Positions 41,445-47,124 of a stretch of DNA of 64,000 bases are shown piece by piece. The notes under the pieces were generated by a model. It was given only the letters and a program-made list of their open reading frames with translations. It made no database searches and was not told where the DNA came from. The stretch covers positions 6,734-70,733 of the forward strand of contig LBRD01000003.1 of assembly GCA_000991245.1 (NCBI GenBank). Reading direction: 5' to 3'. Each line of letters starts with the position of its first letter. Position 1 is the first letter of the stretch. This DNA is from Parcubacteria group bacterium GW2011_GWC1_36_108. Lineage in GTDB: Bacteria; Patescibacteriota; Minisyncoccia; Moranbacterales; GWC2-37-73. The position numbers and the translations under genes were made by a program.

Positions 41445-42263
41445 TTAAAATGGGCTTTTGATGTTTCTAAGCATTGGATTAGTTACTTTCGTGTATATCT
41501 GTGTTGTTCTTATATTAGCATGTCCAAGCAATTCTTGTACATATCGCACATCAACCCCATTTTCAAGCAGATGAGTGGCAAAAGAATGTCTAAGTGAGTG
41601 AAAAGTGGCTTCTTTTTGAACCTCAGCTTTTTGCAGAGCATTTTCAAAAACTTTTTGTGCGCTACGCTCATCTAATTTTCCTCCGCGATTACTGGCAAAA
41701 ACATAATCATTTAAATCTCTAAGCGCAATCATATTAAGCAATTGTGGTTTCAATTTTTCTGAAATTACACTTATTCTATCCTTGTTTCCTTTAGCTCCTT
41801 TTATATGAATTGTTAATTCGTCTAAATTGATGTCTTTAATCTTTAAATTTATTGCTTCACTGACGCGAAAACCTGCGCCATAGGAAAGGGAAATGAGCAG
41901 CTTATGTTTCGGATTGCTTATGGAATCAATCATTCTTCCAATCTCATCCCTAGAAAGTACTACGGGCAATTTGCTGGCAGTTTTGGCAAATTTGATATCA
42001 ATTTCAATATTATTTTTAAAAACTTCTCTATAAAAGTATTTAATAGCTTGAAGATGCACATTCATCGTCTGTGAGGATTGTCCACGAGCTTGTTTTTCTA
42101 ATAAATATTTCTTAATTACTTCAATTTCCGGTTCGCGCTTAATAATTTTAATGTATTTGAAATATTCATTCAGACAAGACAAATAACTCTCAATTGTCCT
42201 TGGACTGTAATTTCGAAGTTTCAGTTCGTTTTTGATTTTTTCCAGCAACTCTTGGAGATTCAT
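41445..42263 (-). CDS. tyrosine site-specific recombinase (Xer/IntI-like, 272 aa)
   Basis: YSPRTIESY N-terminal SAM-like domain; KLPVVLSRDE; catalytic R (GFRVSE), K (KGNKDR), HSLRHSFATHL and LGHANIRTTQIYTKV (Tyr). There is no long insertion between the K and HxxR regions. Confidence 0.85.
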   Translation of the reverse strand: MNLQELLEKIKNELKLRNYSPRTIESYLSCLNEYFKYIKIIKREPEIEVIKKYLLEKQARGQSSQTMNVHLQAIKYFYREVFKNNIEIDIKFAKTASKLPVVLSRDEIGRMIDSISNPKHKLLISLSYGAGFRVSEAINLKIKDINLDELTIHIKGAKGNKDRISVISEKLKPQLLNMIALRDLNDYVFASNRGGKLDERSAQKVFENALQKAEVQKEATFHSLRHSFATHLLENGVDVRYVQELLGHANIRTTQIYTKVTNPMLRNIKSPF

Positions 42264-42321
42264 AAAAAATATGCTATATTTTATTCATAAATCAGTGATG
42301 GTTGTATTATACTAAAAGTTC

Positions 42322-42384
42322 GCATAACCTGCAACTTTCAACATACTATCAAACACTAAGTTCGTATATAAAGGAGTTATGTGC
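42322..42384 (+). other. attI-like region: GCATAAC (42322-42328) ... GTTATGTGC (42376-42384)
   Basis: Inverted AAC/GTT boxes 113 bp or less from the recombinase start. 42376 is where similarity to the right end of cassette 1 begins. Confidence 0.4.
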
Positions 42385-42489
42385 AATAGCCAGAAATACC
42401 CCATTATCTTTTAGAATTTTTTTTGGCGAAATGCAGGGTCGAATAACTCAAGGTAAAATTAATATTAATTAAATTAAACAACAAACATT

Positions 42490-43110
42490 ATGAAAGAAAT
42501 GTATCAACCATCGCAAGCTGAAATAAAAAAAGCAGAAGATGTCATGACTGAAGAACAAAAACTTGAGAGCATGACGAGAGAAAATGCTGTTCACGCAGGG
42601 GAAGCATCTTTCAGTGATTATGATGAAACAAAAAAAATTAACCCAGAAAAAACCCATAAAATTGAGATAGAACTGCAAGCCACAATTTATAAGGAATTCA
42701 ATGATCGAGTTAAAGAATTAGTTAAATCATATACAGAAAGCCTATCTGCCCTAAAAAGAGAAGCTAACTATGAAGACGACGAGCAGCTTGATGAGATAGA
42801 TAAAAAAATAAATGAATTAACAAAAAAATTATTTGAAGACTTTGGAGAACAGTATATGCGCTTAAGCAAGGTTGTAATAGACACCACAATAACAATATCA
42901 GATTTTGTAATTCATAAAAAAGACATGTTATTACAGCAAGAAGAAGATCAACAAAAAAGACAGGAGTTAGAAGCCAGCATACTTAAAAGCGAAAATGCAA
43001 AAATACAAAGAGCGGAAGCTGTCATAGCAAATCTTGAAAAATATATAAACGATGTTAAAAACAATTTTGAAAAAGGTGCTGAAGAATTAATGAAAGAAAT
43101 AAAGAAATAA
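42490..43110 (+). CDS. cassette 1 ORF: acidic coiled-coil protein, unknown function
   Basis: 206 aa, E/K-rich. Bracketed by inverted repeats 42376-42430 and 43117-43175. Confidence 0.6.
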   Translation: MKEMYQPSQAEIKKAEDVMTEEQKLESMTRENAVHAGEASFSDYDETKKINPEKTHKIEIELQATIYKEFNDRVKELVKSYTESLSALKREANYEDDEQLDEIDKKINELTKKLFEDFGEQYMRLSKVVIDTTITISDFVIHKKDMLLQQEEDQQKRQELEASILKSENAKIQRAEAVIANLEKYINDVKNNFEKGAEELMKEIKK

Positions 43111-43166
43111 GAAAAATTCGCCAAAAAAAATTAAACACAAATAAGGAATGGGTATTTCTAGCTACA

Positions 43167-43364
43167 GCACATAACAGCCCATATCTGGCTACAGGAAATT
43201 GACGCTAGTAAAAACAATATTGAGTGTCAATTTCCCTCCGCCCAAATTTTCATCCCTTGGTTTGATGAAGGTTTAGGCGGAGTGCATTAAAAAAAATATC
43301 AGCCTGTAATTAAAGTTTATCCTGCTAAACGGGATGAAAACTTCAGATATGGGCGACGTTGTGC
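43167..43364 (+). other. attC-like folded site 1
   Basis: GCACATAAC, then CCCATATCTG pairing with CAGATATGGG; hairpin GGAAATTGAC/GTCAATTTCC; CCCAAATT; GTTGTGC. Confidence 0.55.
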
Positions 43365-43527
43365 GAAATAAATTTTTTATCTATACTAATATTAGCGTTT
43401 AGTGATGCTAGTAAGGACAGAAAATTTGATTTTTTAATTATTTTAAGAGGGGTAATATGTGTTTTTCTGCTCTTTGGGGAGCAGAAAAAATTAATTCATT
43501 TGTAATTTATTTTTAAGCAATAAAACT

Positions 43528-44430
43528 ATGAGCATGGAACAACCAAAATTTAATCCACACAATCCTGAATATAAAAAAGTTGAGGATTTACCAAAAGAAG
43601 AACAAGTAAATTATTCTGACGTTGAAGGTGGTTTTGTTCAAAAAGAAGCAGCTGAGTTTTATAAAATAGCGCAGGACATTGAAAGAATTACAGAGCGCGA
43701 AAGTGGCTCAATGAGTGCTGACAAATTCATGATGCTTCTCGCGCAAGATGAGGACACGAAAAGAGAATGGGATGCGCTTACTGGAAAACAAAAGCTCAAT
43801 GTTCTCATGGGAAATCCTAAAAAAGAGGACATGGATTTATCGACTTGGAACACGAATAGGTCTGCGATAGAGAAAACTCTTGAAGAACATCCTGAACTTA
43901 GAGATAACAAGAAGCTTATGCTTAAATTGATTATTTCAGGTACCAGTCAGGCACCAGGGCTTGCTTCTGAAAAAGTGCGTAATGATAAGGGTTACGCTTT
44001 GGAGGCGGTAAAACGAAACGGAATGGCTCTCGGGTATCTTCCAGAGGAGATGCAAGACGATGAAGATGTTGTTATGGCAGCAGTTACTACGCGTGGATTA
44101 GCTCTTAGAGAGGCTTCTCCACGATTGCAGAACAATAGAGAAATTGTTGCTGCAGCAATCACCTCAGAGGATGGAGACTTTGGAGACATAATATATGCCT
44201 CCTCAGATGAGGTAATTGAAAGTTTATTGGATGAAAATAACCCAGCCAATAAGGATATTCTTTTAAAAGCGATGAATAACAAGCATGTCAATGATAATTA
44301 TAAAAGAATTGCCAGCTATAATCCAAATCATCCAGACTACCAGGGTGGGCAGTACGATGAAGTTTTCAAGAGATATGAGCATCTGCACATGCGTGAGAAA
44401 ATAGAGAAAATATTGGGAGAGAATTTATAA
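43528..44430 (+). CDS. cassette 2 ORF: DUF4116-type repeat protein
   Basis: Repeats of the form AVKRNGMALGYLPEEMQDDEDVVMAAVTTRGLALREASPRLQNNREIVAAAI. No SD. Confidence 0.6.
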   Translation: MSMEQPKFNPHNPEYKKVEDLPKEEQVNYSDVEGGFVQKEAAEFYKIAQDIERITERESGSMSADKFMMLLAQDEDTKREWDALTGKQKLNVLMGNPKKEDMDLSTWNTNRSAIEKTLEEHPELRDNKKLMLKLIISGTSQAPGLASEKVRNDKGYALEAVKRNGMALGYLPEEMQDDEDVVMAAVTTRGLALREASPRLQNNREIVAAAITSEDGDFGDIIYASSDEVIESLLDENNPANKDILLKAMNNKHVNDNYKRIASYNPNHPDYQGGQYDEVFKRYEHLHMREKIEKILGENL

Positions 44431-44455
44431 ATATCCAAAAAAATACCAATAAGGA

Positions 44456-44504
44456 GTCTTGAAAAAAGGAATTCACCCCTTACCCCTCTTCCTTTTTTCA
44501 AGAC
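44456..44504 (+). other. 15-bp perfect hairpin with conserved C-rich loop ATTCACCCCTTACCCCTCT
   Basis: GTCTTGAAAAAAGGA / TCCTTTTTTCAAGAC. The loop is complementary to AAGAGGGGTAA at 43445-43455 and 44782-44792. Confidence 0.7.
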
Positions 44505-44573
44505 AAAAATCAAATTTTCTTAGACGCAACACAACGTTTAGTTTAATAAAAAACGAGATAAAAAATTTACATC

Positions 44574-44700
44574 GCACAACAACTCATATCTGGCTCAAGA
44601 AATTGACACTTTAATGTTTCAGATGAAAGTCAATTTCTTTCGACCCAAATTTTTGTGCAATTACATTGCGCAAAAACTTCAGATATGAGTAACGTTAGCT
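44574..44700 (+). other. attC-like folded site 2
   Basis: GCACAAC, then ACTCATATCTG pairing with CAGATATGAGT; GAAATTGAC/GTCAATTTC; CCCAAATT; GTTAGCT. Confidence 0.55.
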
Positions 44701-44853
44701 GAAATATTTTTTTGTCTTTAGTAGTGATTTTTAGATTTGTGATTTAAATAGGGACAGAAAATTTGATTTTTAATTTATTTAAAGAGGGGTAATGGGATAT
44801 TTTTTTGCTCCTGGAATCGCAAAAAAAAGATTTATTTTATTTTTAAAAACAGT

Positions 44854-46431
44854 ATGGAAAAATATTCATTAGAAAATGCCCAGAGCGAAGCTACTGTTAT
44901 TAGAAATGATGCACAAGAGGCAAAACAAAAAAGAGTGCTAGAGGGCGAAAAAAGCGGTGAGCCAAATAGAGATGATTATGACAAAGCCGACAAAGCGATT
45001 GATAGCATTGGCATAAGTAATAGAAAAGAATTTGAGCAAAAACAAGCTGAGATACAAAATAAATATTCAACCGTATTGGAGGGGTCAAAAAATAGCGGTA
45101 ATCAAGAATCTGTAAAATTGCTTCAAGATAACATGAGTCAAGAACTATCTTTTATTGATAGCCAATCAAAGAAATTTAATAGTTTGGAATTTAAAAAGGG
45201 AGAGAAGGCGACGCGTGAATATATTAAAAAAAATAATCTTGATAAATTAGTAGAAGAATTCGGAATTGAGCCAATGAAAGAGGGTTGTCGTCTTTCATTG
45301 GTCATTCCAGCATGCAACGAGGGGCGTGATATTCAAAAAACATTACAATCCTTAGCAGAGCAGAAAGATGAAAATGGTGAAGGTATTAATCCTGATGAAT
45401 TTGAGGTTTTGATTACAGTCAATCAAAAAGAGCAATCAAGCGAGGAAATAAAAAAATCAAATCAACAAACACTTGAAGCAATAGAAGAATTCAAAAGGAA
45501 TAATCCATCTTTAAATATCCATGCTATTTTAAAAGAATTTACGGGCGAGCAAGGTGGTGTTGGTTGGGCAAGAAAATTAGGAAGTGATTTGGTACTTGCA
45601 AGAAGTTTTAGCAGAAATCAAGAATCTGAACGAGAACCGATGTATATTGCAGGAACTGACGCTGATACAATTGTTGGTGAGCAATATGTATCAGAAATTA
45701 TCAAGGCAGCAAATAAGTATGGCGATGCCGCCTATGGCGGTGGTGTTATTTTTGATGAGAATTGGGAAAAAGCATTGGGAAAAAATGCGTCCGACAAGCT
45801 CAGGGTATTCATGGAAGATATGCGTGGATTTCTATTAAAGGCATTAAATGGCGGTTTGCAAGGTGCAAACTTTGCCATACGCGAAGATATCTATGCTCGC
45901 ATGGAAGGAAGCTCAACAAAAGTACATAGCGAAGATGCGGAAAATGATGAACGATTACGAAGTTTGAAAAAAAATGTAACATTTTTAAATTCTGACCATA
46001 TCACTAGCTCTCGTAGGATGATTGGAGAATTCGAAAACTATATTGCTGGAATGCGAGGGCAAAAAATAGACTGGGAAACACGAAACAAGACTTATGGAAA
46101 GTCTGTCCCTACGGGAGAAAAAATTGACTTTACTGAATCCGAGCTTGATGAGGTAATTGCTTACCACAAATTACATAGATCAGATCTAATTATAGACAGT
46201 ATAACTTCGGAAAACGTAAATAATCCAGAGATGGTGCAATTGATTGGAGAAAAATATCATTCTGATTTTAAAGATTTAAAAACTGAAGAATTTAAGACAC
46301 TATTGAATGATAAAAATTTTAGAAAAAAATTACAAATTGAGATAGCATACAATATGTCTAAATTATTTGCATCGAAAATTTCATATACAGAAAAAGATAA
46401 ATTCATCATCGGAATTCCAGAAAAACAATAA
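44854..46431 (+). CDS. cassette 3 ORF: protein with central GT-A (GT2-like) glycosyltransferase fold
   Basis: LSLVIPACNEGRDIQKTLQSL and GTDADTIV (DxD-like). Coiled-coil N-terminus. No SD. Confidence 0.55.
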   Translation: MEKYSLENAQSEATVIRNDAQEAKQKRVLEGEKSGEPNRDDYDKADKAIDSIGISNRKEFEQKQAEIQNKYSTVLEGSKNSGNQESVKLLQDNMSQELSFIDSQSKKFNSLEFKKGEKATREYIKKNNLDKLVEEFGIEPMKEGCRLSLVIPACNEGRDIQKTLQSLAEQKDENGEGINPDEFEVLITVNQKEQSSEEIKKSNQQTLEAIEEFKRNNPSLNIHAILKEFTGEQGGVGWARKLGSDLVLARSFSRNQESEREPMYIAGTDADTIVGEQYVSEIIKAANKYGDAAYGGGVIFDENWEKALGKNASDKLRVFMEDMRGFLLKALNGGLQGANFAIREDIYARMEGSSTKVHSEDAENDERLRSLKKNVTFLNSDHITSSRRMIGEFENYIAGMRGQKIDWETRNKTYGKSVPTGEKIDFTESELDEVIAYHKLHRSDLIIDSITSENVNNPEMVQLIGEKYHSDFKDLKTEEFKTLLNDKNFRKKLQIEIAYNMSKLFASKISYTEKDKFIIGIPEKQ

Positions 46432-46434
46432 GGA

Positions 46435-46484
46435 GTTTTGTTTCAAAAAAATTCACCCCTACCCCTCTTTTTTTGAAACAAAAC
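46435..46484 (+). other. 17-bp perfect hairpin with conserved loop TTCACCCCTACCCCTC
   Basis: GTTTTGTTTCAAAAAAA / TTTTTTTGAAACAAAAC. The stem differs from 44456-44504 but the loop is conserved. Confidence 0.7.
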
Positions 46485-46553
46485 GAAAAATCAAATTTTC
46501 TTAGTAATAAAACAAAGTTTGTATTAATAAAATAGAAGACAAAAAAATACATC

Positions 46554-46743
46554 AGCTAACACGGCATATCTGGTTCAGAAATTTTTCACTTTTATACTTT
46601 TTAACGCCAAGGTTTGAAAAATTTCCTCTCCCAAATTGCGCTGTGATATGGCAAAGTTTAGTGATATAATTAAGGCAGGCAGAAAGTTGAAGTTTTAGCC
46701 AATGAATATGGGCGCAACTTCAGATGATGCCGATACGTTGTCG
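46554..46743 (+). other. attC-like folded site 3
   Basis: AGCTAAC, then GGCATATCTG pairing with CAGATGATGCC (one bulge); GAAATTTTTCA/TGAAAAATTTC; CCCAAATT; GTTGTCG. Confidence 0.5.
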
Positions 46744-46803
46744 GAAATATCAAAAAACAAATTCATTAATATTTTTTTCAAGCCCTTTTGAAATTCAGGT
46801 AAA

Positions 46804-46830
46804 GAAAAAACCGCACAGTATTCTGTGCGG
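46804..46830 (-). terminator. rho-independent terminator for the minus-strand small ORF
   Basis: Minus strand reads CCGCACAG-aata-CTGTGCGG followed by TTTTTT. Confidence 0.7.
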
Positions 46831-46848
46831 TCGTAATTACATTTGTCA

Positions 46849-47019
46849 TTATATCGCCCTCGACATTTCCTGAATTGAAGCCTCGCTTAGTTTGTTGTGT
46901 TCTTTTTCGTCACAAGAAGCTATCAAGTACGTGCACAAGATTATAGTACCACCAAATCCATTGGGAAAATGTTGGGCATGTCTACAGTCATCATCTTCGT
47001 ATGGACAACGCTTTTCCAT
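46849..47019 (-). CDS. cassette 4 ORF: 56-aa Cys/His-rich protein (below track threshold)
   Basis: AAGGAGGTGATTAAT-ATG strong SD. MEKRCPYEDDDCRHAQHFPNGFGGTIILCTYLIASCDEKEHNKLSEASIQEMSRAI. Has its own terminator. Confidence 0.5.
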   Translation of the reverse strand: MEKRCPYEDDDCRHAQHFPNGFGGTIILCTYLIASCDEKEHNKLSEASIQEMSRAI

Positions 47020-47092
47020 ATTAATCACCTCCTTGTTTAATGTGCTAGTATACTATTATTAGATAAATTATCAATATTGTCAAGCGGGGAAA

Positions 47093-47124
47093 AACTTCTC
47101 ATACTTAGATATGTTGTGCGAAAT
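47093..47124 (+). other. degenerate terminal site (AACTTC...TAGATAT-GTTGTGCGAAAT)
   Basis: Shares GTTGTGCGAAAT with 43358-43369 and retains a decayed AACTTCAGATATG box. Confidence 0.4.

Follow-up and report, generated by a model that had tools for sequence, protein, structure and literature searches.

A probable integron-like cassette-capture platform built on a Xer/dif-type module in Candidatus Moranbacteria

Integrons, especially sedentary chromosomal integrons, have a recombinase gene that is divergent from an array of cassettes, with an attI site adjacent to the gene. Most cassettes hold one sense open reading frame (ORF) and end in an imperfect palindrome, attC, with AAC/GTT ends and R and L boxes. 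The palindrome has an asymmetric unpaired spacer, an extrahelical base and a variable terminal structure (VTS), and the crossover lies at G|TT. New cassettes are attI-proximal, cassette content is diverse, mostly unknown and strain-variable, and sites are alike within a lineage. The same features are found at positions 41445–47124 of a 64-kb stretch (the window) of contig LBRD01000003.1 from Parcubacteria group bacterium GW2011_GWC1_36_108. The host is an ultra-small groundwater bacterium of Candidatus Moranbacteria, and its relatives often carry a like array. In the window, a tyrosine recombinase gene is divergent from four cassettes, with an attI-like site in between; three cassettes have a hairpin-forming, attC-like site and the fourth has a terminal half-site. 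We read the locus as a chromosomal cassette-capture platform, integron-like in working and built on a Xer/dif-type module, with a probability of about 80%. A sequence-only reading had already taken this locus as integron-like, and comparative evidence from 51 loci strongly supports it; none of the three refuting conditions that could be checked spoke against it.

The locus also differs from integrons. An IntI-specific additional domain (the I2 helix around patch III, with the intI_Cterm signature) defines IntI (PMC9668308, PMC4889954), whereas the recombinase here has no I2 domain and scores under the NCBIfam integron-integrase cut-off. The attI site is dif-like, with an 11-7-11 layout, and the host belongs to Patescibacteria. 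The R stem reaches 25 to >60 bp into the cassette, compared with 7 bp in integrons, and the longer variable region contains inner helices that are conserved. Long conserved non-coding frames, 5′ and 3′, surround the cassette ORFs, and the cassettes may have promoters of their own. A canonical integron was rejected since the IntI insertion is absent, and the locus is not filed as an integron because the defining IntI-domain test failed.

Single-recombinase Xer/dif modules (XerS/difSL, XerH/difH and archaeal XerA/dif) likewise have a single compact Xer-type recombinase and a 28–30-bp site with two inverted arms next to its gene; difSL, for example, adjoins xerS. These modules resolve chromosome dimers and have no cassette arrays, whereas here a variable hairpin-bounded array follows the site and no GC-skew switch is seen at it in the short window. 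The attP(+) of CTX-phi consists of two inverted dif-like sequences about 100 nt apart, which form a forked hairpin with an unpaired centre. CTX-phi is one of the integrative mobile elements exploiting Xer (IMEX), and our locus shares with it the folding of an inverted dif-like pair, a dif-like target, a Xer-type enzyme and tandem arrays. However, IMEX are phages, plasmids and islands that encode replication or transfer functions of their own, whereas the units here are promoter/ORF/site cassettes of 0.2–3.4 kb without such genes and with one site design phylum-wide. The pdif modules of Acinetobacter are also small gene modules bounded by Xer sites, which move between replicons without a transposase. 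On plasmids, complete XerC/XerD sites in opposite orientation bound each module, whereas the locus here is a chromosomal array beside a recombinase gene; its hairpin-forming sites are direct repeats on one strand, and for this reason a pdif module was rejected.

Close homologues of the recombinase number in the thousands in Patescibacteria, and the best 120 are 71–89% identical to it. The comparison set consisted of 51 Patescibacteria (Candidate Phyla Radiation, CPR) loci from different genomes. Two half-site hidden Markov models (HMMs) were built from the window sites and iterated, with a match threshold of E<0.01. In the sequence upstream of the recombinase genes of these loci (185 kb in total), they gave 121 matches, all on the opposite (divergent) strand. 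No match was found in the 325 kb downstream of the same recombinases or in 300 kb of 24 control loci with distant recombinases. Sites were present in 26 of the 29 genome loci having at least 1 kb of upstream sequence, in arrays of 1 to 6 or more. The labelled lineages with the system include Moranbacteria, Wolfebacteria (complete genome CP011209), Paceibacterota and Shapirobacteria.

The sequence-only reading had pointed to a lone GTTATGTGC at 42376, 113 nt from the recombinase ATG, as lying where attI would be. The position was verified, and a conserved dif-like site lies there in nearly all loci, approximately 96–122 nt upstream of the recombinase ATG, with the consensus (A)CTTCGCATAT-AAACGAG-TTnnnnGAAAT. 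The form with the left arm ACTTCGCATAT, followed by AAACGAG-TTnnnnGAAAT, is kept in approximately 40 loci, and its two inverted arms of about 11 bp have the layout of dif. E. coli dif is GGTGCGCATAA-TGTATA-TTATGTTAAAT, which we take attI to resemble in both arms. In the window, the core AAGTTCGTATAT-AAAGGAG-TTATGTGCAAT is located at 42358–42387 on the plus strand, with a predicted crossover at G42376/T42377, and it occurs only once.

Related genomes are alike through the ..ACGAG of attI and unrelated beyond it. The backbones of loci L011 and L016 keep 95–97% identity until 2 nt beyond the G of the attI GTT and are unrelated from there on; their arrays hold two and three different cassettes, respectively. 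Contigs encoding an identical recombinase (P0015) have different genes on the divergent side. The three contigs of the 89%-identical relative have the same first cassette, and it differs from that of the window. Gene content thus varies next to like recombinases; identical content in all related genomes had been named beforehand as counter-evidence. In addition, 15 of the 48 genome contigs (L013, L030, L038, L042, L043, L045, L048–L051, L055–L057, L059 and L060) end at attI or shortly beyond it, 103–253 nt upstream of the recombinase ATG. These ends are assembly breaks at attI, as expected of a polymorphic or repeated junction. Judged from these comparisons, cassettes appear to be inserted at attI with a crossover at G|TT, as in integrons.

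A total of 64 cassettes were delimited, with a median length of 923 nt; they are discrete units, and the crossover position is common to attI and the sites. Their ORFs (69 sense, 6 antisense) are nearly all unique, and most cassettes have a single sense-oriented ORF; the arrays vary, as in integrons. The Pfam content is accessory, namely NUDIX, restriction-modification, CbiM, ion exchangers/efflux, SMR, SET and glycosyltransferase, and most ORFs have no family. No replication, transfer or phage genes were found among the cassette ORFs.

The movement of cassettes is seen most clearly in a 3.2-kb cassette with a HinfI/TdeIII-type restriction enzyme and two methyltransferases, which occurs in L010 and L023. 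The two copies have 88–96.5% nucleotide identity, whereas the backbones have just 71–74%. The cassette is at position 1 beside attI in L010 and at position 3 after another site in L023, and in both genomes the homology block extends from 2 nt behind the G of one GTT as far as the following GTT. Similarly, the second cassettes of L040 and L044 have 87% identity on backbones of 74–81%. Discrete cassettes have therefore moved: they are shared across genomes and array positions and are bounded exactly at the predicted crossover.

The three attC-like sites of the window are all on the plus strand. Site 1 (43150–43360) comprises R″ (43150–43175) ending in AAC (43173–43175), a 2-nt spacer, L″ (43178–43187), a structured variable region, L′ (43344–43353), a 4-nt spacer and GTT (43358–43360). 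Site 2 (44556–44696) has AAC at 44578–44580, L″ at 44583–44592, L′ at 44680–44689 and GTT at 44694–44696. Site 3 (46536–46739) has AAC at 46558–46560, L″ at 46563–46572, L′ at 46721–46731 with a bulged G at 46726, and a 5-nt spacer before GTT at 46737–46739. The AAC...GTT lengths are 188, 119 and 182 nt, respectively. Across the family, AAC and GTT are near-invariant, the AAC..GTT span is 68–424 nt (median 141) and the variable region is approximately 36–390 nt; the variable terminal structure of canonical attC is 20–100 nt (Cury 2016, PMC4889954). The sites are thus somewhat longer than canonical attC with overlapping ranges, and the sequence-only reading overstated the difference in calling them 2–3 times longer than known attC.

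The folding of sites 1 and 2 was better than that of shuffled sequences on both strands. The z-scores of site 1 were −6.3 (plus) and −5.5 (minus) and those of site 2 were −5.6 (plus) and −5.0 (minus), and none of 200 shuffles was as good for either site. The expectation of better folding thus held for these two sites and failed for site 3, to which we return below. RNAalifold on 14 long sites independently recovered both the R box and the L stem, together with a conserved hairpin and a long-range helix that covaries, and the inner helices with covariation support the conserved internal helices proposed earlier. The L stem is 10/10 Watson-Crick in 36 of the 47 complete sites, with 26 distinct sequences, and sites 1 and 2 of the window are among those with 10/10. 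The spacer between R and L is 2 nt on the 5′ side and 4–5 nt on the 3′ side, and a bulged base, mostly G, is present in 13 of the 47 sites. The sites hence show the anatomy of attC: an imperfect palindrome with R″/R′ and L″/L′, an unpaired spacer, a bulged base and a variable terminal structure.

The stretch after each GTT complements the stretch before the next AAC, so that the start of a cassette pairs with its own end, a feature that the sequence-only reading had overlooked. In the window these pairs are 42376–42401/43150–43175, 43358–43382/44556–44580 and 44694–44718/46536–46560; they are 25–26 nt long and 88–92% complementary, and the sequence differs in each cassette. This is expected if a circular cassette has one long hairpin that is opened by a crossover at G|TT. 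For the 59 cassettes with both ends known, the first 25 nt matched their own last 25 nt at a median of 22 of 25 positions, compared with 11.8 ± 3.0 for non-cognate pairs and a median of 11 for the adjacent array cassette. The maximum is 23 of 25 because two mismatches (ACATC versus GAAAT) are conserved. When 35 circular-form junctions were reconstituted, leaving out six poorly matching junctions and five near-duplicates, 95.5% of the cells paired, and compensatory double changes were found in 19 of 23 pairs. None of 500 shuffles reached this covariation, and slid controls gave 34–48%. The hairpin pairing is under selection, and the R stem exists only in the circular form.

The following mechanism may explain these results. 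The recombinase would bind the double-stranded dif-like attI through the left arm, a centre of about 7 nt and the right arm TTnnnnGAAAT. An attC-like site would represent two inverted imperfect copies of attI, arranged as R″-2 nt-L″, a variable structured region and L′-4/5 nt-R′. In the excised circular cassette, the two halves would fold into a long hairpin comprising an R stem of 25 bp or more that includes the two conserved mismatches, the asymmetric unpaired spacer, the 10-bp L stem, often with a bulged base, and the variable terminal structure. Strand exchange at G|TT in attI and in the folded site would insert the cassette beside attI, leaving R′ and the body at the cassette start and R″-L″-VTS-L′ at its end. 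Repeated insertion would stack cassettes, and recombination between sites would excise them. We infer that the adjacent recombinase catalyses both the insertion of folded sites at attI and the excision. By analogy with attC and the attP(+) of CTX-phi, the substrate may be the folded single strand, whose unpaired centre would permit only one strand exchange, to be resolved by replication.

The recombinase gene (41445–42263, minus strand) encodes 272 amino acids with a Pfam PF00589 Phage_integrase match (1.9e-41) and an N-terminal SAM-like domain. The protein is 100% identical to a protein of Candidatus Moranbacteria bacterium GW2011_GWC2_37_73, and its catalytic residues are complete (R133, K158, H222, R225, H248 and Y257). 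It scored 224.5 bits with the NCBIfam model XerA_Arch (NF040815, cut-off 220), which places it in the Xer family, and 212.5 bits with the integron-integrase model TIGR02249 (cut-off 265), where the match was split into two stretches. The best solved-structure match by sequence was the Vibrio integron integrase IntI4 (PDB 2a3v, E 9.6e-46); next came archaeal XerA, XerD far behind. Residues 186–240 of IntI4 correspond to only 12 residues of this recombinase. The AlphaFold model (predicted local distance difference test, pLDDT, 80.5) has no helix at residues 180–198, and its top Foldseek matches were 2a3v and XerA. The absence of the IntI-specific insertion, noted at first from the sequence, is borne out by the 2a3v alignment, the split TIGR02249 match and the AlphaFold model. 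The enzyme is a compact IntI/XerA-like recombinase without an I2 domain, about equally near integron integrases and archaeal XerA.

Several observations weigh against the integron-like reading. The field ties the I2 helix to the recombination of folded attC and holds it to be an adaptation for single-stranded attC recombination (PMC4792948, PMC7790495), yet it is absent here, and folded-DNA recombination is therefore putative. The free energy of site 3 is no better than that of shuffles (z −0.4/0.0), although its conserved stems are still present, namely a 10-bp L stem with the bulged G and hairpin 1. About 13 of the 59 cassettes have poor end complementarity (indels or missed sites), and the 35 junctions behind the 95.5% figure were chosen without six of these. 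The hints as to the strand conflict. In 35 of the 47 sites the bottom strand has the greater stability (the z-scores of this family-wide folding are rough, from 10 mononucleotide shuffles), and a conserved C-A mismatch becomes G-T on that strand; on the top strand, however, the L stem is closed by an invariant G-T. Each L′-spacer-R′ half is in itself a complete duplex site. The 24 contigs with an identical recombinase, which are from the window's own strain, all share the same array. Finally, the recombinase has 70–89% amino acid identity across genera, which fits a housekeeping Xer equally well.

The last point leads to the alternative that survives best, a housekeeping Xer/dif system with parasitic IMEX-like insertions. 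The recombinase would be a dimer resolvase and attI its dif, and the cassettes would make use of them as other elements (CTX-phi, TLC and the gonococcal island) do of XerCD. We regard this as possible, though at clearly less than even odds. The score above the XerA cut-off, the dif architecture of attI with its presumed likeness to E. coli dif, the design of CTX-phi attP(+) with its two inverted dif-like sites and unpaired centre, and a highly conserved recombinase that occurs once per locus set except in one metagenome-assembled genome (MAG) all agree with it. Such enzymes form the 'Cand' subgroup of Xer-related recombinases and are taken as Xer in Smyshlyaev 2021, where cassettes are not mentioned. 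Against it, no terminus signature is seen at attI in the window: to either side of the array and attI the GC skew has a positive sign, with a plateau from approximately 54–62 kb, 12–20 kb off, in a window that is short and with a skew that tracks gene strand too. Moreover, each cassette brings a single accessory ORF in the common orientation, and the site design is shared phylum-wide, which is integron-like and not IMEX-like. This alternative differs from a capture platform chiefly in the beneficiary, and the recombination chemistry would be identical. The recombinase may also be a housekeeping Xer with attI as its dif; such a role would enrich the integron-like reading, not refute it. In its boldest form, that reading becomes a proto-integron, in which one I2-less recombinase both resolves dimers at dif and captures folded single-stranded DNA cassettes across the CPR; we put this forward tentatively and hold it to be rather unlikely.

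Classical double-strand site-specific recombination is a second alternative, and we consider it improbable. Only the duplex L′-spacer-R′ half would recombine with attI, and the 5′ half and the long stems would serve another purpose, for example transcription termination, mRNA stability or second-strand priming. The 3′ half does fit the attI consensus (ACTTCnnnATAT..ACG|TTnnnnGAAAT), and sense-strand G-T pairs are tolerable in RNA. The last site of the window array, AACTTCTCATAC..GATAT-GTTGTGCGAAAT (47086–47124, plus strand, GTT at 47113; nhmmer match E 1e-3), is a 3′ half alone, for which no matching 5′ half was found; it is the detectable array end and had gone unnoticed in the sequence-only reading. 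The lack of the I2 helix points the same way, and IntI itself keeps double-strand activity (PMC4792948). However, ATAT and GTT are 6 nt apart in attI and 7–9 nt apart in the attC halves, so that duplex 3′ halves would have a centre 1–3 nt longer than attI, which argues against exchange between two double strands. The R″ arm pairs with the start of its own cassette and not with that of the neighbour (22 versus 11 of 25), which makes sense for an excised circle only and not for an array transcript. The conserved mismatches, the asymmetric spacer and the bulged base also mirror the three unpaired features of attC, which are the central spacer, extrahelical bases and variable terminal structure as set out in PMC5027507 and PMC4889954.

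Although structured intergenic repeats of 100–200 nt are common in bacteria and conserved non-coding frames round unrelated ORFs are unusual for integron cassettes, it is very improbable that the sites are repetitive extragenic palindromes (REP), bacterial interspersed mosaic elements (BIME), miniature inverted-repeat transposable elements (MITE) or RNA motifs in a variable island next to the recombinase by chance, since the 121 matches in 51 loci all share the same side and strand relative to the recombinase, cross-genome homology blocks end exactly at GTT...GTT with the ORF included, divergence begins exactly at the attI GTT and the 64-kb window holds no further copies. MITE/REP repeats were rejected by position, strand and exact block boundaries. 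A known ribozyme or RNA motif was rejected as well: the array alone gave no Rfam family even at E≤1, and the whole 64-kb window gave none (no tRNA, rRNA or riboswitch) at gathering thresholds.

The four cassettes of the window are all annotated on the plus strand. Cassette 1 (42376–43357) carries an ORF of 206 amino acids (42490–43110) without a family match, and its ends are complementary at 22 of 25 positions. Cassette 2 (43358–44693) carries a DUF4116 ORF of 300 amino acids (43528–44430), and cassette 3 (44694–46736) a family-2 glycosyltransferase ORF of 525 amino acids (44854–46431); the ends of both are complementary at 23 of 25 positions. Cassette 4 (46737–47112) carries an antisense Cys/His-rich ORF without a family match. 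The ORF, AAC and GTT coordinates of the sequence-only reading were all exact on recheck; the 56 amino acids given there for the antisense ORF apply if it starts at the ATG at 47019, and a GTG start gives 59 amino acids (46849–47028, minus strand). This ORF comes with a near-consensus promoter-like TTGACA-17-AATAAT (47083 to 47055) and a strong ribosome-binding site; its intrinsic terminator lies at 46832 to 46809.

Between the recombinase gene and the array, the promoter scan gave a candidate cassette promoter (Pc), TTCATA-18-TATACT (42284–42313, plus strand), aimed into the array; ATTATACT and TTCATAA are kept across loci. The promoter-like total of the scan in the window was not above chance, so that single sites are leads only. 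A putative promoter of the recombinase gene, TTGCAG-17-TATAAT (42334 to 42306, minus strand), comes from our own reading of the sequence and was not listed by the scan. An accessory copy of the recombinase-arm motif, GTTCGCATAAC, is located at 42318–42328 (plus strand), at the same place in approximately 30 loci. It falls between the −35 and −10 boxes of the putative recombinase promoter and is a possible operator for autoregulation.

Promoter-like and leader-like elements were also seen within the cassettes. An extended −10-like TGATATAAT at approximately 46660–46670, in the variable part of site 3, is aimed at the next cassette. The scan gave GTGATA-16-TATAAT (46643–46670) around it, which has the same relative place in L022, L034 and L047, and a TATAAT-like box is found at that site position in many sites. 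In the 5′ frames at 43445–43505 and 44782–44840, a strong Shine-Dalgarno-like AAGAGGGGTAAT is followed by a short ORF and a T-run/hairpin/A-run, immediately before the real ORF. The arrangement suggests a possible leader peptide or translational-coupling device.

Unrelated ORFs are embedded in conserved non-coding frames of approximately 80–180 nt at the 5′ end and 100–300 nt at the 3′ end. In the window the frames are 42376–42489/43111–43175, 43358–43527/44431–44580 and 44694–44853/46432–46560, and such frames also occur in loci L007, L010, L016, L047 and L053. For example, the first cassette of the window and the third of L053 have ends 79% and 92% alike, and the second cassette of L010 and the first of L016 have ends 93–95% alike with different ORFs. 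Partial complementarity between the 5′ and 3′ frames reaches far past the 25-nt stem, which may be relevant to the making of cassettes. Four genomes have cassettes of about 181 nt without an ORF at positions 1 or 2, which are 81–91% alike and GC-rich (in cassette orientation, L019 8949–9129, L023 9538–9721, L025 8931–9111 and L047 9923–10102). They consist only of an R′-loop-R″ hairpin and an L″-VTS-L′ hairpin, and GAT/ATC replaces GTT/AAC in them, a further compensatory change.

An aminoglycoside-phosphotransferase-like gene lies past the last detected site in L011 (10835–11065, cassette-oriented) and L016 (11892–12055). It is approximately 90% identical between the two loci, with different 5′ frames, and no recognisable site follows it, so that arrays may decay in their older parts. 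MAGs labelled Bdellovibrionales, Cyanobacteriota or Gammaproteobacteria (L013, L014, L024, L030, L037, L040, L044, L057 and L061) carry a Patescibacteria-type recombinase and sites, and these contigs are probably mis-binned. The MAG UBA4824 has two differing recombinase-plus-array loci, L020 and L023 (77% and 75% identity to the window recombinase), and represents either two platforms or a strain mixture. An exact-match scan of metagenomes with the left arm of the window attI found only three unrelated stretches, and a scan of viral contigs with the common L′-R′ 23-mer found nothing.

In the open-access and bioRxiv literature, the sole coverage of our search, no description of such a system in Patescibacteria was found. 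The array looks like an undescribed form of gene capture, and possibly an ancestral one, because the recombinase is without the domain thought essential for integrons. Integrons are defined by, and searched with, the IntI-specific domain, and here a full integron-style architecture exists without it, carried by dozens of genomes in a huge, poorly understood radiation of tiny genomes. Current integron surveys would miss such platforms or at best log clusters of attC without an integrase. If the proto-integron view is true, the system would be a living representative of the transition from Xer to IntI or an independent invention, attC-type recombination would not require the IntI-specific domain, and the ORF-less 181-nt units and conserved frames would be the raw material of cassette genesis. 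The origin of integrons from Xer/dif becomes a concrete experimental question, and for the creation of cassettes, the ORF-less cassettes and shared frames are candidate intermediates. For the organisms themselves, the array points to a route of gene flux, including restriction-modification systems, transporters, NUDIX hydrolases and glycosyltransferases, in bacteria thought to be genomically streamlined.

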